Shown here piece by piece: positions 28,980 to 42,917 of a DNA stretch of 64,000 bases (its first letter is position 1; the number at the start of each line of letters is the position of its first letter). The position numbers were made by a program, and so were the translations under genes. The DNA is from Acidobacteriota bacterium (lineage in GTDB: Bacteria; Acidobacteriota; Thermoanaerobaculia; Gp7-AA8): positions 224,001 through 288,000 of the forward strand of contig JAFATB010000014.1 in assembly GCA_019244185.1 (NCBI GenBank). The letters run 5' to 3'. The notes under the pieces were generated by a model. It was given only the letters and a program-made list of their open reading frames with translations, had not been told where the DNA came from and ran no database searches.

Positions 28980-29096
28980 GTGTTCCCTCCGTGTCTGCCC
29001 TGGATTGCGACCGAGGTGCCACGGCCGACATAGATCCGTCAAAAAGTATCCGCGGCGTGGCCGAGCCCGCCGCGTCGGGTGCTACCATGCCGCGCC

Positions 29097-30206
29097 ATGC
29101 CGGCCGAGCGCTCGATGCAGGACGTGCTGCGTAACCTATTGCAGTACGGCGAGTTGTCGTTTCGCGACTTCATGGAGGTGGCGCTCTATCACCCGCAGTT
29201 TGGCTACTACGCCACGCGCGAAAACCCGGTCGGCCGCAGCGGCGATTACGTCACCGCGCCCGTGCTCAGCCCGGCATTTTCGTTCGCGATCGGCAGGCTC
29301 GTCCGCGAGTTCGTGCGCCGTGCCGAGGGCGCGATGTGCTCCATCGTGGACATCGGATGCGGCGACGGCGGGCTGATCCGCGCGATCGCGGCGGAGATCG
29401 ACGCGCCGCATGCGCGCTTTTTCGGGGTCGACCGCGCGCTCGGACGCGTGCACGACGAGCACGCGCGCGTCACCTTTCTCAACACGCTCGATCAAGTGCC
29501 GCGCGACGGCATGCATGTCATCCTGTCGAACGAGCTCTTCGACGCGTTTCCGTTCGCGCGGCTCATGCAGCGCGGCGAGCACCTGCACGAGTTGTGGGTC
29601 GGCGAGCGCGGAGGAACGCTCGACTGGGTCGAGCGCGAGGCGCCTGGTCCGTACGAGCACTACTTCGCCGAGCGCGGGATCGAGCTCGCCGAGGGGCAGT
29701 TCGCGGACGTTTCGCTGGAGTGGGAGGCGTACTACGCGGACGTCGCGCATTTCGTGCGGCAGGGAATGATCGTCACGTTCGACTACGGCTTTCCGCAGCA
29801 GAAGCTGTTTCATCCGCGCGCGCGCCGCTTCGGCACCGCTGCGGCGTACGCGGGGCAGCGCGTCTCGCGCGATCTGCTCGCGAACGCGGGCGAGCAGGAC
29901 CTCACCGCCCACATCAACTTCACCGACCTCGAGCGCGCCGGCGAACGTGAAGGCGCGACGACGCTCTTCTTCGACCGCCTCGCTCCGTTTCTCCTCGGCG
30001 TCGGCATCGCCGAGCATCCGCTCTTCACGCCGGTGCACGAGCTGTCGGTGTCGAATGCGGAGCAGGGGATGGCGCTGATGGAAGCGCGCGAAGACGCGCG
30101 GCGGCTCGTGCTGCCGGACGGAATCGGCGAGGAATTGCGGGTGCTGGTGCAGGGGAAAGGGATCGCGATGGAGGGCTGGTCCTTCCAGAGTCCGCTGATT
30201 CCTTGA
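29097..30206 (+). CDS. SAM-dependent methyltransferase, MidA/NDUFAF7 family
   Basis: FRDFMEVALYHP.FGYY, GDYVTAP, DIGCGDG, NELFDAFP, FDYG, GEQDLTAHINF. Confidence 0.9.
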   Translation: MPAERSMQDVLRNLLQYGELSFRDFMEVALYHPQFGYYATRENPVGRSGDYVTAPVLSPAFSFAIGRLVREFVRRAEGAMCSIVDIGCGDGGLIRAIAAEIDAPHARFFGVDRALGRVHDEHARVTFLNTLDQVPRDGMHVILSNELFDAFPFARLMQRGEHLHELWVGERGGTLDWVEREAPGPYEHYFAERGIELAEGQFADVSLEWEAYYADVAHFVRQGMIVTFDYGFPQQKLFHPRARRFGTAAAYAGQRVSRDLLANAGEQDLTAHINFTDLERAGEREGATTLFFDRLAPFLLGVGIAEHPLFTPVHELSVSNAEQGMALMEAREDARRLVLPDGIGEELRVLVQGKGIAMEGWSFQSPLIP

Positions 30207-30260: not shown

Positions 30261-30620
30261 ATGGCAAATTACTCGGTGCTGTTGGTCGCCGCGCTCATCG
30301 TGGTCTCCGTGCCGGTACTGACACTATTCATCATCACTCCACTCGTCCGCGCGTCGCGGGCGAACAAGGTGAAGCTCGAGCCGTATGAATGCGGCATCGC
30401 GCCGACGTCCTCAGCATTCGACCATCGTTTCTCGGTCCGCTACTTCCTCATCGCGGTCCTCTTCATCGTCTTCGACGTCGAGACGGTCTTCCTCTTCCCC
30501 TGGGCGATCAGGTTCAAACAACTCGGATGGTTCGGTGCCGTCGAAATGGCGGCGTTCCTGGCGATTCTCCTGATCGGGTATTTCTATGCGTGGAAGAGGA
30601 AGGTCCTTTCATGGGTCTGA
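30261..30620 (+). CDS. nuoA: NADH-quinone oxidoreductase subunit A
   Basis: PYECG, FIVFDVE, LFPWA; three TM. Confidence 0.95.
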
Positions 30621-31633
30621 TCGAGAATCGATTCGAGTCGAACGTTCTCACGACGACCGTCGACAAATTCTTCAACTGGGCGCGTAAATCTTCTCTCTGG
30701 CCGATGCAGTTCGGCCTGGCCTGCTGCGCCATCGAAATGATGGCCGTGCTCGATCCGCGGCACGACATGGCCCGCTTCGGCGCCGAGGTCTTCCGCGCTA
30801 CGCCGCGCCAGGCCGACCTCATGATCGTCTCCGGCACCGTCACGGAGAAGATGGCTCCGATCGTCCGCCGTCTGTGGGACCAGATGCCGGACCCGAAGTG
30901 GGTGATCTCGATGGGCTCGTGCGCGACGTGCGGCGGCCCGTACGACACGTACGCGGTGACGCAGGGCGTCGACCGCCTGATTCCTGTGGACGTCTACATT
31001 CCCGGATGTCCGCCTCGTCCCGAGGCGCTCATGTGGGGATTGATGGAGCTCCAGAAAAAGATCGAGCGGATGCACATCCTGCGGAAAGGCGGCGAGGCGT
31101 ACGACTTCGCGCGCGCCGCGGTCCGCGACTCGCTCCGGCCCGCGCATGAAGGTCCGGCGCTGCGCGCGGAGCAGGCCGCGCAGCTCAAGCCCGCGCCGAT
31201 CTCCGGCGTCAAGCGCGCGCCCACGCCGGCCGCGCCTCCGAAACCGAAAGCAGTTCCGGCCGCCGCCGCGGAAACGGCGGAAGCCGCGGACGTCACGCAG
31301 GCCGACATTCAGCAGGCCGCCGCCCCCGAGATGCCGCTCGATCAGCCGGAAACCGGCGCGTCGCCGGCGGTGCCGTTCCATCGCGACGATCTCACGCTCC
31401 CCGAGCGCATGACTCTCGCCAACGAGATGGGCGGCAACTGGGTGACGAAGCTCTTCGCGTCGATGGCGCAGACCGACTGCGGCGCGTGCGGCTGGGACTG
31501 CGAAGGCTACGCGAACGCGCTGGCCGAGGGCGAAACCGACGACATTTCTCTCTGCGTCCCCGGCGAATCCGAGACGCTCGACATGCTGAAACTTCTGATG
31601 GAGGAGGCGGGCAAGAGCTACTCGGGCGTGTAA
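30611..31633 (+). CDS. nuoB: NADH-quinone oxidoreductase subunit B with C-terminal extra Fe-S domain
   Basis: [19 protein letters not shown]; Ala/Pro linker then [16 protein letters not shown]. Confidence 0.95.
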
Positions 31634-31646
31634 GTCCCGCAGCGAA

Positions 31647-32435
31647 ATGTCAGAGACAACTCCGCCGAGCACACCGCCGCCCTCCGCGGCGCCCGCCGCG
31701 CCCACCGCACCTCCCGTGCGCGGGGCCGACGAGATTAAACGCGACCCGCTCGTCGCCGCCGCGGTGGCGCGCGCGGCCGACGCCGTGCTCGACGCGAGAG
31801 AGCTCGTCGGCGAGATCACGCTCTTCATCGACACCGCCCGCATCGCCGATGTCTGCCGCACGTTCAAGGACGACGGCTTCGTCTATCTCGTCGACCTCGC
31901 CGGCGTCGACTACTCGAAGTTCCCGAATCACACCGGCCCGCGCTTCAGCGTCGCCTACACGCTCTACTCCTTCCGCCGCAACGCGCGCGTGCGGCTGCGC
32001 GTCTGGACCGACGGCGACGTGCCGTCGGTGACCGCGGTGTGGAAGACCGCCAACTGGCACGAGCGCGAGACCTTCGACATGCTCGGCATCAACTTCACCG
32101 GCCATCCGAACCTCGAGCGCATCCTCATGTGGGACGGCTTCAACGGACATCCGCTGCGGAAGGACTTCCCGATCCGCGGAATCGATACCGGGGCGCGGAT
32201 CTATCCGGAAGTCTTTCCGGAAGGCGGCGGTCCGAAGGCCGGCTCGACCGGCAAGCCGGTGAACGATGTGAACCTCTACAAGGGCGAATGGAAGGCGTAC
32301 GGCAGCTCGCCCGCCGCGCAGATCGGCGGCGGCGCGAAACCGGCGCCGCCGAAGCCCGCGCCGAAACCGGTCGCCGCGCCGGCGCCCGCACCGGTGGCGG
32401 CGGCAGCCGATGACGACGCGGAGGAGGAGGCCTGA
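31647..32435 (+). CDS. nuoC: NADH-quinone oxidoreductase subunit C
   Basis: [27 protein letters not shown]; Pro/Ala-rich tails. Confidence 0.95.
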
Positions 32436-33550
32436 TGTTCGACGTCCACGAAATGGAGGTCAACTTCGGTCCCCAGCATCCGTCGACGCACGGCGTGCTG
32501 CGCGTGCTGCTCAAGATCGACGGCGAGCGCATCATCGAGGCGAAGCCGGTCATCGGCTACCTGCATCGCGGCACCGAAAAGCTCTTCGAGCACATGGCCT
32601 ATCCGCAGTGCATCCCGCACACGGATCGGATGGATTACGTCGCCTCCGCCACGAACAACCTCGGCTTCGTCGAAACGGTCGAGAAGCTGATGGGCGTCAC
32701 GAAACAGATCCCGCGCCGCGCGCAGATCCTGCGCGTGATTCTCTCGGAACTGCAGCGCATCTCGTCGCACCTCTTGTGGCTCGCCACGCACGCGATCGAC
32801 ATCGGCGCGATGACGCCGTTCTTCTACTGCTTCCGCGAGCGCGAGCAGATCCTCGACTTCTTCGAGGCCTACTGCGGCGCGCGCCTCACGCTCAACTGCA
32901 TGCGCATCGGCGGCATGCCGGAAGACGTGCCGGCCGGCTGGCTCGAAGACATCGAGGCGTTCTGCGACAAGTTCGACGCGGCCGTCGACGAGTACGAGTC
33001 GCTGCTGACCACGAACCGCATCTGGAAGCGCCGCACCGTCGGCATCGGCGTGCTCTCGCCGGAAGAAGCGATCGAGTGGGGCATCACCGGACCGCCGCTG
33101 CGCGGCTCCGGCGTCGAATGGGACCTGCGCCGCGCGCAGCCGTACGAGATCTATCCCGAGCTCGACTTCGAAGTGCCGGTCGGCAAGAACGGCGATACGT
33201 ACGACCGCTACCTCGTGCGCATGGAAGAGATGCGGCAGTCGAACCGCATCCTCAAACAATGCATCCCGCTGATTCGCGAGACGCCTGCGGGTGACCTCAA
33301 GGCGAAGATCTCGAAAGTCATCCGCCCGCCGGAAGGCGAGGTTTATCACTCCATCGAGTCGCCGAAAGGGGAGCTCGGCTACTACATCGTGTCCGACGGC
33401 AAAACGCAGAACGCGTATCGCTGCCACGTCCGCCCGCCGAGCTTCGTGAATCTGCAGGCGCTGCCGGCGATGGCGCGCGGACATCTGGTCTCGGATCTCG
33501 TGGCGCTCATCGGCACGATCGACATCGTGTTGGGAGAGGTGGACAGGTGA
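32435..33550 (+). CDS. nuoD: NADH-quinone oxidoreductase subunit D
   Basis: [38 protein letters not shown]. Confidence 0.97.
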
Positions 33551-33669
33551 AAAAGATGAATGAAGAACGCAGAACGCAGAATAAAGAATTGAGAAAGTGC
33601 GCCACCCGCGCAGCGTCGTCCTCTTTCTACGTTCTTCATTCTGCGTTCTGCGTTCTTCATTCATCTTTT
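33551..33669. repeat. long inverted repeat built from heptamer units
   Basis: 38-nt arms 33551-33588 and 33632-33669 with one mismatch; GCAGAAC/GAAGAAC-type 7-mers. Confidence 0.85.
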
Positions 33670-33683
33670 AACGAGGTGGCCGC

Positions 33684-34826
33684 ATGAACAAGGCTCTCCT
33701 CACCTACCTCGTCTGGCCGCTGGTGAAGTTCCTCATCGCCTTCATCATCGTGCAGCTCATCGTCGTCGCCATGACATGGATCGAGCGGCGGCTGCTCGGA
33801 TTCATCCAGGCGCGGCTCGGACCGAATCGCGTCGGACCGTGGGGCCTCCTGCAGGGCATCGCCGATCCGGTGAAGCTGCTGCTGAAGGAAGACATCCTTC
33901 CGACGAGCGCGGAGAAGATCGCGTACTTCCTCGGACCGATGCTGCCGCTCATTCCGGCGTTCGTCGTCTTCGCGCTGATCCCGTACGGACCGCCGCCGGC
34001 GTTCACCGTCACGCGCGTCAACGTCGGGCTACTGCTCATCCTCGCCATCACGTCGACCGCGGTGTACGGCATCATCCTCGGCGGCTGGGCATCGAACAAC
34101 AAGTACTCGCTGATGGGCGGTCTTCGCTCGGCGGCGCAGATGGTGTCGTACGAAGTGCCGTTCGGCCTCTCCATCGTCGGCGTGCTGATGATCACCGGCT
34201 CGCTCGATCTCGTGCAGATCGTCCGCTATCAGGAAACGAACGCGTGGAACTTCCTCCCGCAGCTCGTGGCCTGCTTCATCTTCTTCGTGTCGATGAACGC
34301 GGAGAACAACCGCACGCCGTTCGATCTGCCGGAAGCGGAATCGGAGCTCGTCGCCGGATTCCACACCGAGTACTCGGGGATGAAGTTCGCGTTCTTCATG
34401 CTCGCCGAGTACTCGATGATGATCGTCAACTCGTGCCTCATCGTGACGCTCTTCTTCGGCGGCTGGACGTTCGGCATGTTCGGCGTCGGCCTCACCACGA
34501 GCGTGCTGCGCGGCATGGGCTTCTTCGGCGGCATTCTCGGCGCCGCCATCTTCTTCGCGAAAGTCATGGTCTTCATGCTGGTCTACGTCTGGTTTCGCGC
34601 GACGTTCCCGCGGTTCCGCTTCGATCAGCTGATGGACCTCGGATGGAAGTGGATGATCCCGCTCGCACTGGGGAACATCTTCGTCACCGGCCTCTTCATC
34701 CTCGCCGGACAGGAGCGGCTGATGTACTGGATCGGCCTCGCGCTCCTCGGCGCCACGGTGTTCTATCTCGGACGCAAACCGGCTCCGCGTAAGGGGATTC
34801 ATGCAAGTCGAGTATCCGAAGCCTAG
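33684..34826 (+). CDS. nuoH: NADH-quinone oxidoreductase subunit H
   Basis: RLGPNRVGP, KLLLKED, SYEVP, RTPFDLPEAESELVAGFHTEYSG. Confidence 0.97.
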   Translation: MNKALLTYLVWPLVKFLIAFIIVQLIVVAMTWIERRLLGFIQARLGPNRVGPWGLLQGIADPVKLLLKEDILPTSAEKIAYFLGPMLPLIPAFVVFALIPYGPPPAFTVTRVNVGLLLILAITSTAVYGIILGGWASNNKYSLMGGLRSAAQMVSYEVPFGLSIVGVLMITGSLDLVQIVRYQETNAWNFLPQLVACFIFFVSMNAENNRTPFDLPEAESELVAGFHTEYSGMKFAFFMLAEYSMMIVNSCLIVTLFFGGWTFGMFGVGLTTSVLRGMGFFGGILGAAIFFAKVMVFMLVYVWFRATFPRFRFDQLMDLGWKWMIPLALGNIFVTGLFILAGQERLMYWIGLALLGATVFYLGRKPAPRKGIHASRVSEA

Positions 34827-35331
34827 CTGGTCGCAGAAGTTCCTCGTGCTCGACCTCCTCGAGGGGTTGAAGACGACGTTCCGCGAGCTGTTCAAGCCGA
34901 AGGTGACGGTGCGTTATCCCGAGGAGCGCAACGAGCCGACGGACCGCTTCCGAGGAATGTTCAAGTTCTCGTACGACCGCTGCATCGCGTGCAAGCTGTG
35001 CGCGGTGGCGTGCCCGATCGACATCATCTACATCGACGTGCACGACGACATGATCGAAGAGGGCGGGAAGAAGAAGAAAGTCAAAGTCCTCGACCGCTAC
35101 GACATCGACGTGAAGCGCTGCATGTTCTGCGCGCTCTGCGAAGAAGCGTGCCCCACGAAGCCAAAGTCGATCTGGCTGACCACGAAGACCTACGAGCTCG
35201 CGACGTACGATCGCAACGATCTCTACTTCAACATGCAGGAGCTCGAGTACTGGGAAGACCGGCCGCGCTACACCGGGCTGCCGGAGGAGGACGAGAAGCC
35301 GCGCCTCGACGAGACGCGCCTCCTCAAATAG
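34801..35331 (+). CDS. nuoI: NADH-quinone oxidoreductase subunit I
   Basis: TVRYPEE, FRG, two CxxCxxCxxxCP. Confidence 0.95.
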   Translation: MQVEYPKPSWSQKFLVLDLLEGLKTTFRELFKPKVTVRYPEERNEPTDRFRGMFKFSYDRCIACKLCAVACPIDIIYIDVHDDMIEEGGKKKKVKVLDRYDIDVKRCMFCALCEEACPTKPKSIWLTTKTYELATYDRNDLYFNMQELEYWEDRPRYTGLPEEDEKPRLDETRLLK

Positions 35332-35333
35332 CG

Positions 35334-36014
35334 ATGGACGCCGTCAGCTCCAGCATGCCGCTGCTCGTCTTCGTCGTCATCGGGACGATCGCCGTCGCGT
35401 CGTCGATCCTCGTCGTGGCGATGCGCAACCCGGTGCATTCCGCGCTGTTTCTCCTGCTCACGTTTCTGTGCGTGGCGGTGTTGTTCGTCCTGCGCAGCGC
35501 GGAGTTCGTCGCCGCCGTGCAGGTGCTCGTCTACGCGGGCGGCATCATGGTGTTGTTCCTCTTCGTGGTCATGCTGATCAACGTGCGCCATCTGCCGGAA
35601 GAGCGCGTGCTCTCGCCGGTCTGGCTCGGCGGGATCGGCGTCGGTCTCGCGATGTTCGTGCTCTTCGCGACGATCGTCCGTCCCGGCACTTACCACGATG
35701 AAGTTCCAAACGCCGACAAGAAGCTGACCACCGTTGACGAGACCTATCTCACGCAGGACGCGACCAATCCGAACCGCCTCGTGCGCCATCACCGCCAGCG
35801 TGAGAACCGCAACGCGGAAGCAGTGGGCATGGCGCTCTACACCGACTATCTCGTGCCGTTCGAAGTCGCGTCGCTCTTCCTGCTCGTGGCGATGATCGGC
35901 GCGATCGTGATCGGCAAGCGCGAGCTCTCCGCGGCGGAAGAAGAGACCGCGCCCGACTACATGCTCGAGCGCGTGGAGACGGAGAAGGAAGTGAAGGAGG
36001 CGCTGAGCGCCTAG
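35334..36014 (+). CDS. nuoJ: NADH-quinone oxidoreductase subunit J
   Basis: NPVHSAL, QVLVYAGGIMVLFLF, PFEVAS. Confidence 0.95.
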   Translation: MDAVSSSMPLLVFVVIGTIAVASSILVVAMRNPVHSALFLLLTFLCVAVLFVLRSAEFVAAVQVLVYAGGIMVLFLFVVMLINVRHLPEERVLSPVWLGGIGVGLAMFVLFATIVRPGTYHDEVPNADKKLTTVDETYLTQDATNPNRLVRHHRQRENRNAEAVGMALYTDYLVPFEVASLFLLVAMIGAIVIGKRELSAAEEETAPDYMLERVETEKEVKEALSA

Positions 36015-36028
36015 CGCTCGCGAGCACG

Positions 36029-36323
36029 ATGCCCAGCACGCAGGCGTACCTGATGTTGTCCGGCACACTCTTCGCCGTCGGCCTGGTCGGCGTGATCATC
36101 CGCCGCAACATGATCACGGTGCTCATGTGCATCGAGCTGATGCTCAACGCCGTGAACATCAACCTCGTCGCCTTCTCGCATCACATCGCCTCGCTGGAAG
36201 GGCAGGTCTTCACGATCTTCGTGATCACCATCGCCGCGGGCGAGGCGGCGGTCGGACTGGCGATCATCATTCAGCTCTACCGGCTGCGCTCCACGATCAA
36301 CGTCGACGAAGCGAGGACGCTGC

Positions 36324-36331
<8 letters not shown>
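36029..36331 (+). CDS. nuoK: NADH-quinone oxidoreductase subunit K
   Basis: RRN, IELMLNAVN, AAGEAAVGLA. Confidence 0.97.
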
Positions 36332-38486
<2,155 letters not shown>

Positions 38487-38500
38487 GGAGCGGTGCGTTC

Positions 38501-40111
38501 ATGGGCATTCTCAACGTCATCACCTACATCCCGCTGATCGGCGCGCTGGTGATCCTGTTCTTCGTGAACCGGAGCAACGCGCGGATGATCCGGGTCCTCG
38601 CGACGGCGACGGCGGTCCTCGACTTCCTTGTCTCGCTCTGGTTGTGGCCCAACTTCGACCGCGCCGCGACGGGCACGAAGATGTGGCAGTTCCGCGAGAC
38701 GTACGACTGGATCCCGTCGCTCGGCGTCAAGTACGACTTCGGCATCGACGGCATCTCGCTCCTGCTCATCCTCCTCACCACGTTCATGGGCATCATCGCG
38801 GTGGTCTCGTCGTACACGGCGATCCATCACCGCGAGAAGGAGTACTACACGCTGCTGCTCATGCTGCAGACCGGCATGATCGGCACGTTCTGCGCGCTCG
38901 ACTTCTTCCTCTTCTACGTCTTTTGGGAAATCATGCTCGTGCCGATGTACTTCATCATCGGCATCTGGGGCGGCGCGCGGAAGCTCTACGCCGCGATCAA
39001 GTTCTTCCTCTACACGCTCGCCGGATCGGTGCTGATGCTGCTCTCGATCCTCGCGCTCTACTTCTTCAACGACGGCGGCATCGGCTTCCTCAACATCAAA
39101 GGCCTCGGCAATCCGGGCACGTTCAGCGTCCTGCAGTTCCACGAGATCGGCCATCTCATTCCGCCGTCGCTGCAGTTCTGGATCTTCCTCGGATTCTTCT
39201 TCGGCTTCGCCATCAAAGTCCCGATGTTTCCGTTCCATACGTGGCTGCCGGACGCGCACGTCGAGGCGCCGACCGCGGGCTCGATCATCCTCGCCGCGGT
39301 GCTCCTCAAGATGGGCACGTACGGATTCGTGCGTTTCGCGCTGCCGATCCTGCCCAGCGCCACGAAGCAGCTCCTCGTGCCGATCGTCGTGCTCTCGCTC
39401 ATCGGCATCGTCTACGGCGCGCTCGTGTCGCTCGTGCAGAAGGACATGAAGAAGCTCGTCGCGTATTCATCGGTCTCGCACCTCGGCTTCGTCATGCTCG
39501 GCATGTTCGCGCTCAACCCGATGGGACTGCGCGGCTCGGTGCTGCAGATGATCAACCACGGCATCTCCACCGGCGCGCTCTTCCTGCTCGTCGGCATCAT
39601 CTACGAGCGGCGCCACACGCGGCTCATCGCCGACTACGGCGGGCTCGCGAAGCAGATGCCGATGTATGCGGCGCTGTTCCTCGTCGCCGCGCTGTCGTCG
39701 ATGGGACTGCCCGCGCTGAACGGCTTCATCGGCGAGTTCACGATTCTCCTCGGCGCCGCGAACTCGACCGCGTTCGGCACGATGGCCTACGCCGTCATTG
39801 CCGCGATCGGGATCGTCCTCGGCGCGGCGTATCTGCTCTGGCTCTATCAGCGCGTGTTCTGGGGCCCGCTCGACAATCCTGAGAACGCGAACGTGCCCGA
39901 CGTCAACCGCCGCGAGCTCGGGCTGATGCTCGCGCTGATCGCGTTGATGTTGTGGATCGGCATCTATCCGAAGCCGCTCTTCGACGTGCTCGAGAAGCCG
40001 GTCGACTACATCGTGCAGAAGGTCGAGCCGACGTACTTCGACAAGCAGCCGCTCACGTATCCAGCCTCGCCGGCGGCCACGACCGAGCATCGCGAGGTGG
40101 CCGAGAAATGA
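38501..40111 (+). CDS. nuoM: NADH-quinone oxidoreductase subunit M
   Basis: FWE, KVPMFPFHTWLPDAHVEAP, LLKMGTYG, GFIGEF. Confidence 0.97.
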   Translation: MGILNVITYIPLIGALVILFFVNRSNARMIRVLATATAVLDFLVSLWLWPNFDRAATGTKMWQFRETYDWIPSLGVKYDFGIDGISLLLILLTTFMGIIAVVSSYTAIHHREKEYYTLLLMLQTGMIGTFCALDFFLFYVFWEIMLVPMYFIIGIWGGARKLYAAIKFFLYTLAGSVLMLLSILALYFFNDGGIGFLNIKGLGNPGTFSVLQFHEIGHLIPPSLQFWIFLGFFFGFAIKVPMFPFHTWLPDAHVEAPTAGSIILAAVLLKMGTYGFVRFALPILPSATKQLLVPIVVLSLIGIVYGALVSLVQKDMKKLVAYSSVSHLGFVMLGMFALNPMGLRGSVLQMINHGISTGALFLLVGIIYERRHTRLIADYGGLAKQMPMYAALFLVAALSSMGLPALNGFIGEFTILLGAANSTAFGTMAYAVIAAIGIVLGAAYLLWLYQRVFWGPLDNPENANVPDVNRRELGLMLALIALMLWIGIYPKPLFDVLEKPVDYIVQKVEPTYFDKQPLTYPASPAATTEHREVAEK

Positions 40112-41598
40112 TGACGTGGGGCGACGCGCTGTTCCTGCTTCCCGAGCTCGTGCTCGCGCTCGGCGCGTCGCTGCTGCTCATCGCGCCCGTCGTCGGGCGC
40201 GGCGAGACCCGCAGATCGGGAGACTCCGCGAAATGGGCGATGCTCGCGCTCCTCGCGATCACCGCGGGCGCCGTCTTTCTGAGCTCGTGGGGCGTGCAGA
40301 GCGTGCATCAGTCGCGCGGCTTCCGCGCGATGTTCGCGCTCGACGGCTTCTCGCTCTTCTTCAAGCTGCTGTTCCTGGTCATTCTCGCGCTCGTCACGCT
40401 GCTCTCCGACGGCTACCTGCGCGGCACGCGATATTCGGCCTGGGAGTACTACTCGCTGCTCGCGTTCGCGCTTTGTGGCATGTTCTTCATGGCGTCGGGC
40501 ATTCATCTCGCGACGATCTACGTCGGCCTCGAGCTGATGTCGCTGTCGAGCTACATCCTCGCCGGCTACTTCAAGAACGAACAGAAGAGCACCGAGGCGG
40601 CGATGAAGTACTTCGTCCTCGGCGCGGTCAGCTCCGCGATTCTGTTGTACGGAATCTCGCTGATCTACGGTGTCACGGGGACGCTGAGTCTGGTCGGCGT
40701 GTCGAACGCGATGGCGACGCTCGTGACGAACGACGCGCTGATGTTCGGCATCATGATGTTGGGCGCGGGACTCTGCTTCAAGATCGCGGCCGCGCCGTTC
40801 CACGTCTGGACGCCCGACGTTTACGAAGGTGCGCCGACGCCGGTCACCGCGTTCCTGTCGACCGCATCGAAAGCCGCGGCCTTCGCGATCTTCGCGCGCA
40901 TCTTCTACGTCGGCGTGCATCACTTCCGGCTCGACTGGCAGTACGTGCTCGCGATCGTCGCGGCGCTGTCGATGATCCTCGGCAACCTCGCCGCGATCAC
41001 GCAGGACAACGTGAAGCGCATGCTCGCGTACTCGTCGATCGGCCACGCCGGCTACGTGCTGCTCGGCATCATCTCGGTGAGCGAGATGGGCTTGCGCGGC
41101 ATCCTCGTATACTCGGTCGTCTACGTCTTCGCCACGCTCGGCATCTGGGCCACGGTGCTCATGCTGCAGCAGCAGGAGTACGCCGGTGAGCTCGTCGACG
41201 ACTTCGAAGGACTGCATCGCCGCGCGCCGTTCTGGGCGTTCGCGATGGTCGTCTTCCTGCTCTCGCTCGGCGGCATTCCGCCGACCGCGGGCTTCATCGG
41301 CAAGTACTTCCTGTTCTACGCGGCCGTCGGCGCCGGCTTCGGCTGGCTTGCCATCATCGCGGTGCTGATGTCGGCCGTGTCGATGTTCTTCTACTTCCGC
41401 CTGGTGATGGCGATGTACCTGCGAGAGGGGAGAGAAGACGCGCTGCCCGCGCAGGGAACGCTGCGCTTCGTCGCGGCGATCTGTCTCGTGGTCACGCTGC
41501 TCTTCGGCATCCTGCCGTCACCGCTCATCGATCAGGCGCGCATCTCCGGTCGCGGCGTTGCCGCGCGTGCCGCCCTGGTGACGCCGAATGGACGATAA
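40108..41598 (+). CDS. nuoN: NADH-quinone oxidoreductase subunit N
   Basis: EAAMKYF, FKIAAAPFHVWTPDVYEGAP, KRMLAYSSI, GFIGK. Confidence 0.97.
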   Translation: MMTWGDALFLLPELVLALGASLLLIAPVVGRGETRRSGDSAKWAMLALLAITAGAVFLSSWGVQSVHQSRGFRAMFALDGFSLFFKLLFLVILALVTLLSDGYLRGTRYSAWEYYSLLAFALCGMFFMASGIHLATIYVGLELMSLSSYILAGYFKNEQKSTEAAMKYFVLGAVSSAILLYGISLIYGVTGTLSLVGVSNAMATLVTNDALMFGIMMLGAGLCFKIAAAPFHVWTPDVYEGAPTPVTAFLSTASKAAAFAIFARIFYVGVHHFRLDWQYVLAIVAALSMILGNLAAITQDNVKRMLAYSSIGHAGYVLLGIISVSEMGLRGILVYSVVYVFATLGIWATVLMLQQQEYAGELVDDFEGLHRRAPFWAFAMVVFLLSLGGIPPTAGFIGKYFLFYAAVGAGFGWLAIIAVLMSAVSMFFYFRLVMAMYLREGREDALPAQGTLRFVAAICLVVTLLFGILPSPLIDQARISGRGVAARAALVTPNGR

Positions 41599-41806
41599 AG
41601 AGGGGCGCGACTTCCGCCAGATGATGGAGGCCTCCTCCATCGGCTGGATGTTTCCGATCGCGATGGCGCTCGGCTTCGGCTGGGGCTGGGGGATGGACAA
41701 GCTGTTCGGCACGAAGCCGTGGCTGACGGTCGTGTTCACGCTCTTCGGCGTGATCGCCGCGTTCATCAACCTTTTCCGCTTCGCGTCGAAAGATGGACCA
41801 CCGTGA
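41588..41806 (+). CDS. atpZ: AtpZ/AtpI-family F0 accessory protein
   Basis: Two TM, 'GWGMDKLFGTKPW'; overlaps nuoN stop; precedes atpI/atpB. Confidence 0.8.
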   Translation: MDDKEGRDFRQMMEASSIGWMFPIAMALGFGWGWGMDKLFGTKPWLTVVFTLFGVIAAFINLFRFASKDGPP

Positions 41807-42203
41807 GGTCCCCTCTTACGAGCGCGAGACACCCGCGGAGGTGTTGCGGCGGATCAAGCGAAACGCGCTCGCGGCGTGCGCCGGATTCGCGGTAATCTCG
41901 TGGTTTTTGGGCGGTTTTCGCGGTCTTCTCGGATTGACTTGCAGTGCAGCGGTGACTATCATCAGCTTCCTTTGGTTGGAGGAGATCGTGACGACTCTCC
42001 TGCAACCGGCGGCACACCTGCACGCTCGGAGGCTGATGTTGCGCACCCTTGCGCGCTTCGCTCTCCTCGGTGTGGCGCTCACGGTCACGATCATCATTGC
42101 TCGTTTCACTGCCTTAAGTGTGTTGTTGGGGTTCTCGGTCATCGTGGTGGGAATCTGCGGCGAAGCTCTGTATTCGCTCTACCGCAGCTTCACTGAGGAG
42201 TAG
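41793..42203 (+). CDS. atpI: ATP synthase protein I
   Basis: Four TM segments, directly before atpB. Confidence 0.7.
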   Translation: MDHREVPSYERETPAEVLRRIKRNALAACAGFAVISWFLGGFRGLLGLTCSAAVTIISFLWLEEIVTTLLQPAAHLHARRLMLRTLARFALLGVALTVTIIIARFTALSVLLGFSVIVVGICGEALYSLYRSFTEE

Positions 42204-42215
42204 CTCGAGAGGTAC

Positions 42216-42917
42216 ATGGAACACGAACACTCAATCCTGTACGGGCCGGTCAATCACTTCTTGAAGCCGCTCCTCGGCTTCGAGGTGCCAGACCACGTGC
42301 TCATGGCGCTCGTGGTGCTGCTCATCAGTTGCATCGTTTTCCCGCTCATGTCGCGCCGCATCAGCCGCGACAACCCGAGCGGCTTCCAGCACATGCTGGA
42401 GATGATCGTCGGCGGTCTCAAGGACCTGCTCGAGGACGTCATCGGCCACGGCGCCGCGGAGAAGTACCTCTACATCATCGGCGCGTTCGCCTGCTTCATC
42501 TTCGTCTCGAACATCTTCGGACTGTTCTTCTTCCTGCAGCCGCCGACGAGCAATCCGAACACGACCTTCGGCCTCGGCCTGACCGCGTTCCTCTACTACA
42601 ACTGGCAGGGCATCAAGACGCAGGGGCTCGGGCATTACCTCAAACACTTCGCCGGCCCGATGCCGCTGCTCGCGCCGCTGATGATCCCCATCGAGATCAT
42701 CGGTCATCTCGCGCGCATCCTCTCGCTGGGCATGCGTCTCTTCGGCAATATCTTCGGCGAGCACACCGCCACCGGGATCTTCATGGGGATGCTGCCGTTC
42801 GTGCTGCCCTGGCCGATGATGGGCCTCGGTATCTTCGGCGCGTTCCTGCAGACGTTCGTCTTCATCATGCTGACGATGGTGTACATCGGCGGAGCCGTCG
42901 CGGCGGAAGAGCACTAG
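42216..42917 (+). CDS. atpB: F0 ATP synthase subunit a
   Basis: PTSN.N, SLGMRLFGNIFGEH, LQTFVF. Confidence 0.95.
   Translation: MEHEHSILYGPVNHFLKPLLGFEVPDHVLMALVVLLISCIVFPLMSRRISRDNPSGFQHMLEMIVGGLKDLLEDVIGHGAAEKYLYIIGAFACFIFVSNIFGLFFFLQPPTSNPNTTFGLGLTAFLYYNWQGIKTQGLGHYLKHFAGPMPLLAPLMIPIEIIGHLARILSLGMRLFGNIFGEHTATGIFMGMLPFVLPWPMMGLGIFGAFLQTFVFIMLTMVYIGGAVAAEEH

Follow-up and report, generated by a model that had tools for sequence, protein, structure and literature searches.

Analysis of a 64,000-nucleotide (nt) stretch of DNA, hereafter the window, from an Acidobacteriota bacterium (Thermoanaerobaculia; Gp7-AA8; assembly GCA_019244185.1, contig JAFATB010000014.1, positions 224,001-288,000 of the forward strand) revealed an operon for a complex I-like enzyme in which the NuoB subunit carries an additional iron-sulfur domain at its C-terminus. 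The source organism is a soil acidobacterium of the class Thermoanaerobaculia, and coordinates given below are those of the window unless another contig is named. The fused protein is encoded at 30611-31633 (+), which translates to a NuoB of 340 amino acids (aa) in which Pfam identifies both Oxidored_q6 (residues 38-147, E 5.9e-29) and the FeS domain PF04060. The fusion is real and conserved; its mechanism is something that we infer. We favor, at a probability of roughly 0.55, that the tail is a swinging-arm [4Fe-4S] carrier that would pass electrons to or from the exposed end of the cluster chain of NuoI.

The protein scores above the cut-offs of NuoB models NF005012 (252.7 bits, cut-off 116), TIGR01957 (240.6 bits, cut-off 142.7), and PF01058 (100.8 bits, cut-off 27). 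Its anatomy was delineated in an alignment with 107 close homologs (108 sequences of 325-355 aa, drawn from 120 rows listed). The NuoB core (residues 1-158; 30611..31084, +) has a mean identity of 0.96, and its cysteines C38, C39, C104, and C133, which we take to be the ligands of cluster N2 (the tandem CC, the C in GSC, and the C in GCPP), are kept in 108 of 108 sequences. The core is followed by a conserved extension of 47 residues (159-205; 31085..31225, +) with a mean identity of 0.93, by a 48-residue linker (206-253; 31226..31369, +) that is 52% Ala+Pro, and by the C-terminal FeS domain (residues 254-340 and the stop codon; 31370..31633, +), as recognized by PF04060, NF004859, and an AlphaFold2 model. 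The extension is specific to the family of the source organism: it is absent from the NuoB of ~161 aa encoded in the orthologous operons of other families and is present even in a family member that lacks the FeS tail (locus L046).

The FeS domain is acidic (D+E 16, K+R 5) and contains four putative ligand cysteines, C290, C293, C297, and C315 (31478-31555), spaced C-x2-C-x3-C-x17-C and all kept in 108 of 108 aligned sequences. The contrast between the mean identity of the domain (0.87 over residues 254-335) and that of the linker (0.60), together with the invariant cysteines, is evidence of selection. These results bear out a first-pass annotation of the window, which had described a complete NuoB core, an Ala/Pro/Lys-rich linker, and an acidic extra domain with this cysteine pattern and had likened the latter to PF04060.

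The first-pass annotation had also named misassembly at the linker as a way in which the fusion could prove spurious, and had called for a search for the Oxidored_q6 + FeS architecture elsewhere. A contig of 1368 nt from a soil sequencing run of another study aligns gap-free to positions 30715-32081, from which it departs by 36 differences. Because this independent contig spans the core, the linker, the FeS domain, and the start of nuoC, misassembly is ruled out, and related genomes carry the same domain. At E <= 1e-3, the tail has matches in 840 database proteins. Among the 120 matches listed, 106 combine PF04060 with PF01058 (~340 aa), nine have PF01058 only, and five have PF04060 only (188-197 aa); the source names read 'NuoB [Thermoanaerobaculia bacterium]', such that these proteins are publicly annotated as plain NuoB.

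Two apparent irregularities among the relatives were set aside. Alignments to some loci were flagged as having a stop within the tail ('1 TAG/TGA'); in the two flagged loci that were read (L018 in genome G070 and L019 in genome G056) the domain is the C-terminus of NuoC, the frame of which closes a few residues short of the end of the query, and the stop is taken to be that of NuoC itself, read through by the alignment. A long NuoB in loci L047, L055, and L077 of other families is an artifact of extending the frame past the stop.

The Pfam match of the tail to PF04060 covers residues 287-317 (26.2 bits versus a gathering score of 23, E 6.5e-6). A longer and stronger match was obtained to NF004859, 'sulfite reductase subunit alpha' (residues 221-336, profile positions 35-147 of 539, E 1.1e-24), which substantiates a likeness to a module of sulfite/nitrite reductase flavoproteins that the first-pass annotation had proposed. 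Neither this family nor RnfB is matched over its full length: the score against NF004859 is 87.1 bits versus a cut-off of 432, the protein has no FAD_binding_1 domain, and the match to RnfB model TIGR01944 reaches 32.8 bits versus a cut-off of 68.7 and covers residues 279-330 only. Because both full-length models miss their cut-offs, we assign the tail to PF04060 but to neither RnfB nor the CysJ-like flavoproteins. A Pfam scan detected no Fer4 domain in the NuoB of the window. By homology, the tail domain is predicted to bind one [4Fe-4S] cluster.

The AlphaFold2 model of residues 245-340, built from a 99-row alignment, comprises four helices with a predicted local distance difference test (pLDDT) score of 89.5; its first seven residues (NuoB 245-251) fall below 50. 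The best structural match, albeit weak, was to residues 34-95 of 9eri_B, the RnfB of the Acetobacterium Rnf complex (Z 4.6, root mean square deviation [rmsd] 2.9 Å over 61 residues). Foldseek returned no match in the PDB at E <= 0.001; its weak matches included 9fzy_F (E 2.7, probability 0.66) and 4c1n_G, large subunits of corrinoid Fe-S proteins (E 2.7-3.7, rmsd 1.9-2.3 Å, 51-57 columns). Since the top structural matches are known [4Fe-4S]-binding PF04060 domains, the predicted fold is compatible with the family, although this alone is not proof of membership. In a search of solved structures with the sequence profile of the tail, every match was to an FAD domain, of CysJ or of CPR, reached through flavoprotein rows in the alignment; no FeS domain was matched. 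Modeling of larger assemblies was uninformative: the full-length NuoB model, based on a shallow alignment of 109 close homologs of at least 85% identity, had a mean pLDDT of 46.7 that was low even in the core, and a complex prediction of the NuoB core, NuoD, NuoI, and the tail, each with its alignment, scored 0.01 and thus gives no verdict either way.

To place the tail in a broader context, we searched 1.84 billion representative sequences and recovered 391 matches at E <= 1e-3. Among the best 150 of these, Pfam identified FeS in 146, FAD_binding_1 in 42, NAD_binding_1 in 13, Complex1_30kDa in two, Fer4 families in two, and Oxidored_q6 in one; the C-x2-C-x3-C-x17-C spacing is present in 148. 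The tail is most closely related to the domains at the N-terminus of CysJ-like flavoproteins, in which the profile consensus consists of the FeS domain, an Ala-rich linker, and then the FAD domain. In CysJ and CPR, a mobile FMN domain occupies the place before the FAD domain. Joined to the rest of the protein by an Ala-rich linker, the closest kin of the tail thus occupy the position that a mobile domain has in diflavin reductases, which supports a tethered carrier.

The two Fer4 proteins among the best 150 are fusions of NuoI to the FeS domain. Five loci (L089-L093) from metagenome-assembled genomes of Verrucomicrobiota encode full-length NuoI-FeS proteins with Fer4 and FeS domains that are 67-77% identical to protein P0161, and in the three loci with upstream genes theirs is the last gene of a nuoA-B-C-D-I or B-C-D-I cluster; unrelated genes follow NuoI-FeS in L091. 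The FeS domain of these NuoI proteins is likewise placed on an Ala/Pro linker, and the motif that precedes it, PF(N/S)xEQR(E/A)WL, is as in the CysJ-like flavoproteins. NuoF homologs were detected in three of three NuoI-FeS genomes checked, each of which encodes two Oxidored_q6 genes, and in one genome an E-F-G-like cluster shares a contig with nuoABCDI(FeS), ~13 kb apart. A more distant NuoC (P0150, 39% identical) also bears an FeS domain. The first-pass annotation knew of no described NuoB with this architecture. This stands, insofar as the portions of text returned by full-text searches contained no description of NuoB, NuoC, or NuoI fused to this FeS domain. As a sequence feature the architecture is not unique, as it is found in hundreds of database proteins, on NuoB, NuoC, or NuoI.

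The broader search also recovered proteins of ~250 aa (P0132, P0137, P0138, P0143, P0144, P0146, P0151, and P0155) that consist of an N-terminal helical domain, an acidic/Ala linker, and an FeS domain. Their N-terminal domains are ~130 aa in length and share 24-33% mutual identity. P0156 and P0158 resemble these proteins by eye, with no BLAST match at 1e-3.

Within the Acidobacteriota, 30 of 401 genomes match the tail, and strong matches in this phylum scan are confined to three families of the class: that of the source organism (7/7 genomes) and two others (4/4 and 3/3). A wider sampling of the family itself identified matches in 55 of 61 genomes, comprising 34 that match twice, 19 that match once, and two that match three or more times, with none in the remaining six (these tallies include the unpublished genomes G024, for the phylum and class, and G475, for the family).

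To evaluate how the tail relates to the enzyme that bears it, we used orthologs of the window's NuoD (64-94% identical); of 81 genomes from the class, 64 encode such an ortholog. Sixty of these loci were examined (all but those of G119, G131, and the unpublished G024), yielding 61 operons when the window is included. All 61 read ...BCDHI, and three are cut by a contig end before A or B. Among the 19 operons from the family, the tail is on NuoB only in six (the window's genus and two others), on NuoC only in seven, on both subunits in five, and on neither in one (L046). In the NuoC-only operons, NuoB is 227-254 aa in length and retains a linker remnant. The tail is absent from all 42 orthologous operons that belong to other families within the class, in which NuoB is ~161-173 aa (189 aa in L088). 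Because orthologous operons that lack both the tail and nuoE/F/G are widespread in the class, the tail represents an acquisition specific to this family, by an enzyme already without the NADH module. The first-pass proposal that the tail stands in place of that module is therefore not supported.

In the NuoC of the window, an Ala/Pro-rich tail devoid of an FeS domain makes up the C-terminus from about residue 221 (32307-32432, +), its last residues being DDDAEEEA. Since 12 of the 19 family operons carry a linker and FeS domain at this same position, the domain-less tail looks like a remnant after loss; it mirrors the linker remnants on NuoB in the NuoC-only operons. A tree of 55 domain sequences (90 columns) groups the domains by host protein rather than by genome, with support for clades of NuoB tails (96/97), of the flavoprotein type (99/91), and of the verrucomicrobial NuoI type (100/99); its deep order is unresolved. 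Grouping by host protein fits a history in which NuoB and NuoC both carried the domain from early on and later lost it differentially.

Copy number also varies. In one genus of the family (g3), NuoB carries tandem FeS domains of a variant spacing, C-x2-C-x4-C-x17-C, without the PFH...ERM helix. Genome G479 (L104, contig C256) encodes a complete NuoB frame with two tandem domains, and genome G056 (L027/L105, contigs C75 and C45) encodes at least four, with 3.5 copies at one contig edge and one at the matching edge, the assembly having broken inside a repeat of 282-nt period. NuoC-FeS is present in the tandem-NuoB enzymes of this genus as well.

In the two other families of the class with strong matches, the FeS domain is, in the four loci read (L020-L023), part of a protein of ~225 aa with a Cys-rich N-terminal domain that has no Pfam match. 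Flanks of ~10 kb around two of these stand-alone FeS proteins (L024 and L025) contained no nuo genes, and the genomes of these two families also encode a tail-less ortholog of the window's operon. The ~225-aa protein could be an untethered form of the carrier.

The operon of the window comprises eleven genes in the order nuoA-B-C-D-H-I-J-K-L-M-N, all assigned by Pfam. The ORF list and Pfam searches over the operon detected no nuoE, nuoF, or nuoG, and nuoH directly follows nuoD, as the first-pass annotation had reported. The absence does not extend to the genome (5.3 Mb in 26 contigs, 98.9% complete). A second, full nuo set is scattered on contig C3: the contig opens with nuoA-nuoE-nuoF, nuoG-H-J-K-L-M-N follow at 5.2-13.8 kb, and nuoB-C-D-I lie at 44.4-47.1 kb. 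Here nuoE-F adjoin the second nuoA and nuoG adjoins the second nuoH, suggesting that nuoE, nuoF, and nuoG belong to the second set. At the end of contig C24 (57800-60221, L007), a third NuoD is represented by its last 41 residues (54% identical to the NuoD of the window); nuoE and nuoF come next, and then BlaI/BlaR-like genes with no nuoG. This is either a third, partly unassembled nuo cluster or a stand-alone D-E-F remnant.

Several other redox genes of the genome bear on the function of the tail. PF04060 occurs only once in the genome, with no RnfB and no other PF04060 protein, and no FAD_binding_1 (PF00667) gene was found, which leads us to reject an FNR-like partner encoded in this genome. 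The only visible context of the domain is thus the nuo operon. One POR_N oxidoreductase gene is present and represents a possible donor. The genome also encodes three heme-copper oxidases (COX1), and the organism is probably aerobic or facultative.

How, then, might the tail function? In the mechanism that we favor, the domain would behave as a ferredoxin-like one-electron carrier whose tether keeps its local concentration high next to the peripheral arm. Low-potential donors in the cytoplasm, for instance reduced ferredoxin or a 2-oxoacid:ferredoxin oxidoreductase, would supply its electrons. The domain would hand these to NuoI, at the exposed end of its cluster chain, and they would travel on by way of N2 in NuoB to quinone; the flow could also run in reverse. 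Complex I structures indicate that the distal cluster of NuoI is uncovered when NuoG is absent, which makes this cluster the most plausible target. Attachment of the tail to NuoB, NuoC, or NuoI indicates that the attachment point is interchangeable, as would be expected of a tether more than of a fixed structural element. The variable number of tandem copies also counts for a carrier, because swinging-arm carriers vary likewise, as does the acidity of the domain, because ferredoxins are acidic. Collectively, a conserved acidic domain with four invariant cysteines, a variable linker, attachment to three subunits in two phyla, variation in copy number, and the nature of the closest kin point to a tethered one-electron carrier of the peripheral arm.

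A number of observations weigh against this interpretation. Structural similarity is weak (Z 4.6; Foldseek E > 1), and we infer that the domain binds a cluster and is mobile, where on NuoI it would dock, which donor it would use, and which way electrons would flow. The absence of the tail from 42 of 42 operons of other families and from L046 indicates that it is dispensable for this type of enzyme. Homologs of nuoE, nuoF, and nuoG are encoded elsewhere in the genome and could be used by both enzymes, and the NuoF homologs and E-F-G-like cluster of the Verrucomicrobiota suggest that a tail may coexist with an N-module, which weakens the idea of substitution. With three heme-copper oxidases in the genome, an exposed low-potential cluster would meet oxygen. 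Finally, the first-pass annotation had paired the acidic tail with a basic insert in NuoI, but a GKKKK insert is also present in the orthologs of tail-less families, and the insert is therefore not a docking feature specific to the tail.

A bolder form of the carrier hypothesis holds that one to five or more [4Fe-4S] domains, tethered to NuoB, NuoC, or NuoI, sweep the cytoplasm, take electrons straight from several soluble dehydrogenases, and deliver them to the exposed cluster of NuoI, rendering free ferredoxin dispensable; we advance this only tentatively. The same tail could instead house a fixed extra cluster, docked permanently on NuoI, NuoD, or NuoC as a landing site for ferredoxin, with the linker serving as an assembly leash. 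PF04060 domains do belong to defined complexes in Rnf and the corrinoid Fe-S protein, and the conserved extension (residues 159-205) could guide the tail along the enzyme surface. We nevertheless consider such an arrangement unlikely, because three attachment subunits, losses, and two to at least four tandem copies are hard to square with one stoichiometric site and because the linkers are long, variable, and rich in Ala and Pro. Complex I is reversible, and the tail might alternatively be an electron outlet, that is, a built-in ferredoxin that receives electrons driven backward from quinol by the proton motive force for use in reductive metabolism. A second, NADH-linked nuo set would cover forward respiration and free this enzyme for such a role, and tethered carriers would be able to serve several clients; even so, no gene for a client enzyme lies beside the operon, its neighbors being methyltransferase and ATP synthase genes, and we judge this rather improbable.

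Exposed [4Fe-4S] clusters are classic oxygen sensors, and in an organism that is probably aerobic or facultative, with a tail that orthologous enzymes dispense with, the domain might gate the enzyme in response to redox state or oxygen, or might help to insert or repair the Fe-S clusters of NuoB and NuoI. Its closest relatives, however, are modules through which flavoprotein reductases and RnfB transfer electrons, and tandem multiplication is not expected of a sensor or an assembly factor, which makes this account quite improbable. The account to which we give least credence is that the tail is a docking handle that recruits NuoEFG encoded elsewhere, or an FNR-like partner, such that NAD(P)H would still be used. 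It draws on the nuoE-nuoF pair without a full operon on C24, on the fusion of the domain to an FNR-like FAD/NAD(P)H module in its relatives, and on the E-F-G-like cluster near nuoABCDI(FeS) in Verrucomicrobiota. Against it, no FAD_binding_1 gene was found in this nearly complete genome, and the positions of nuoE-F and nuoG on C3 fit their membership in the second set.

The remaining genes of the operon are all on the forward strand. The gene nuoA (30261..30620, 119 aa; Oxidored_q4, E 9.8e-35) precedes the nuoB fusion gene, which is followed by nuoC (31647..32435, 262 aa; Complex1_30kDa at residues 61-178), nuoD (32435..33550, 371 aa; Complex1_49kDa, E 3e-106), and, after a gap of 133 nt, nuoH (33684..34826, 380 aa; NADHdh, E 7.5e-120). 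The product of nuoI (34801..35331, 176 aa; Fer4 families) has two CxxCxxCxxxCP motifs, between which lies the insert EEGGKKKKVKV. The nuoJ ORF (34989..36014; Oxidored_q3, E 1.2e-44) opens inside nuoI, and its true start is uncertain, with the Pfam match beginning at ORF residue 138. It is followed by nuoK (36029..36331; Oxidored_q2, E 7e-31), nuoL (36324..38486; Proton_antipo_M, Proton_antipo_N, and Proton_antipo_C), nuoM (longest ORF 38231..40111; Proton_antipo_M, E 4.2e-77), and nuoN (longest ORF 39952..41598; Proton_antipo_M, E 8.3e-78). The true start of nuoM is probably after the end of nuoL. NuoM and NuoN are 49.8% and 33.9% identical, respectively, to their paralogs on C3.

Features that flank or interrupt the operon were also identified. 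The gene directly 5' of nuoA (29079-30206, +) encodes a protein with a Methyltransf_28 domain (PF02636, E 7.3e-29), the family of NDUFAF7/MidA. In mitochondria, this assembly factor of complex I methylates the homolog of NuoD. The gap between nuoD and nuoH is filled by an AT-rich, near-perfect hairpin (33551-33670; -71 kcal/mol, z -11). The genome has 53 copies of its 24-nt arm, on both strands and spread over 14 contigs; the hairpin is a dispersed palindromic repeat. Genes for ATP synthase (41793-42917, +) begin 194 nt 3' of nuoN and comprise atpI (weak, E 7.2e-5, under the cut-off) and atpB (ATP-synt_A, E 6.5e-50), placing two energy-conserving machines adjacent to one another.

Published accounts of complex I variants provide a background for these findings. 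In the excerpt of PMC11238625, the donor of 11-subunit enzymes is described as unresolved, with no common donor found (citing Moparthi and Hägerhäll, 2011). The only fusion mentioned in the retrieved portions of a 2025 survey of complex I variants (PMC12361115) is C-D, those of PMC4453560 mention only C-D and B-C-D fusions, and those of a preprint on Thermoanaerobaculia (10.1101/2020.10.01.322446) refer to Nuo in general terms only. A full-text literature search found no paper on the function of the NF004859 flavoprotein family.

A covalently tethered candidate carrier offers a handle on the question of how electrons enter complex I in enzymes without an NADH module, and the family and its relatives supply a natural comparison series with the tail on NuoB, NuoC, or NuoI and with zero, one, two, or at least four copies. 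It also suggests a likely role, that of a tethered one-electron shuttle, for the C-x2-C-x3-C-x17-C subfamily of PF04060, whose members include uncharacterized flavoproteins of the CysJ-like type along with two small-protein families that have uncharacterized N-terminal domains. Should the bolder form of the carrier hypothesis prove true, it would reveal where electrons enter all complex I-like enzymes of 11 subunits.

The enzyme shares its eleven genes, their order, and the lack of NuoEFG in the operon with the complex I-like enzymes of 11 subunits from many anaerobes, with cyanobacterial and chloroplast NDH-1, and with Fpo of methanogens, and the N2 and NuoI cluster motifs are intact here too. 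NDH-1 receives electrons from free ferredoxin via NdhS/V/O and Fpo via the added subunit FpoF. In contrast to NDH-1 and Fpo, the enzyme described here has a [4Fe-4S]-type domain covalently tethered to NuoB, or to NuoC or NuoI in its relatives, in one to at least four copies. The tail resembles the N-terminal [4Fe-4S] domains of RnfB and the corrinoid Fe-S protein in its PF04060 match and its four-Cys motif, and these domains give its best, albeit weak, structural matches; it differs from them in belonging to the C-x2-C-x3-C-x17-C subfamily, in having an extra conserved N-terminal helix (PFH/PWHD...ERM), and in lacking a transmembrane helix and Fer4. Its closest sequence family, the CysJ-like flavoproteins (NF004859/PRK06214), has an Ala-rich linker after the FeS domain, whereas the tail has no FAD or NAD(P)H domain and is C-terminal on a complex I subunit rather than N-terminal on a reductase. 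A more distant analogy may be drawn with the lipoyl domains of 2-oxoacid dehydrogenase E2 and with tandem acyl carrier proteins (ACPs), which likewise combine Ala/Pro linkers, tandem copies, and a tether to a multi-enzyme machine. Unlike those arms, to which it has no sequence relationship, the tail would carry one electron on an Fe-S cluster instead of a covalent substrate, and if it does swing in this manner, it would be the first Fe-S counterpart of lipoyl- and ACP-type arms on a respiratory complex.

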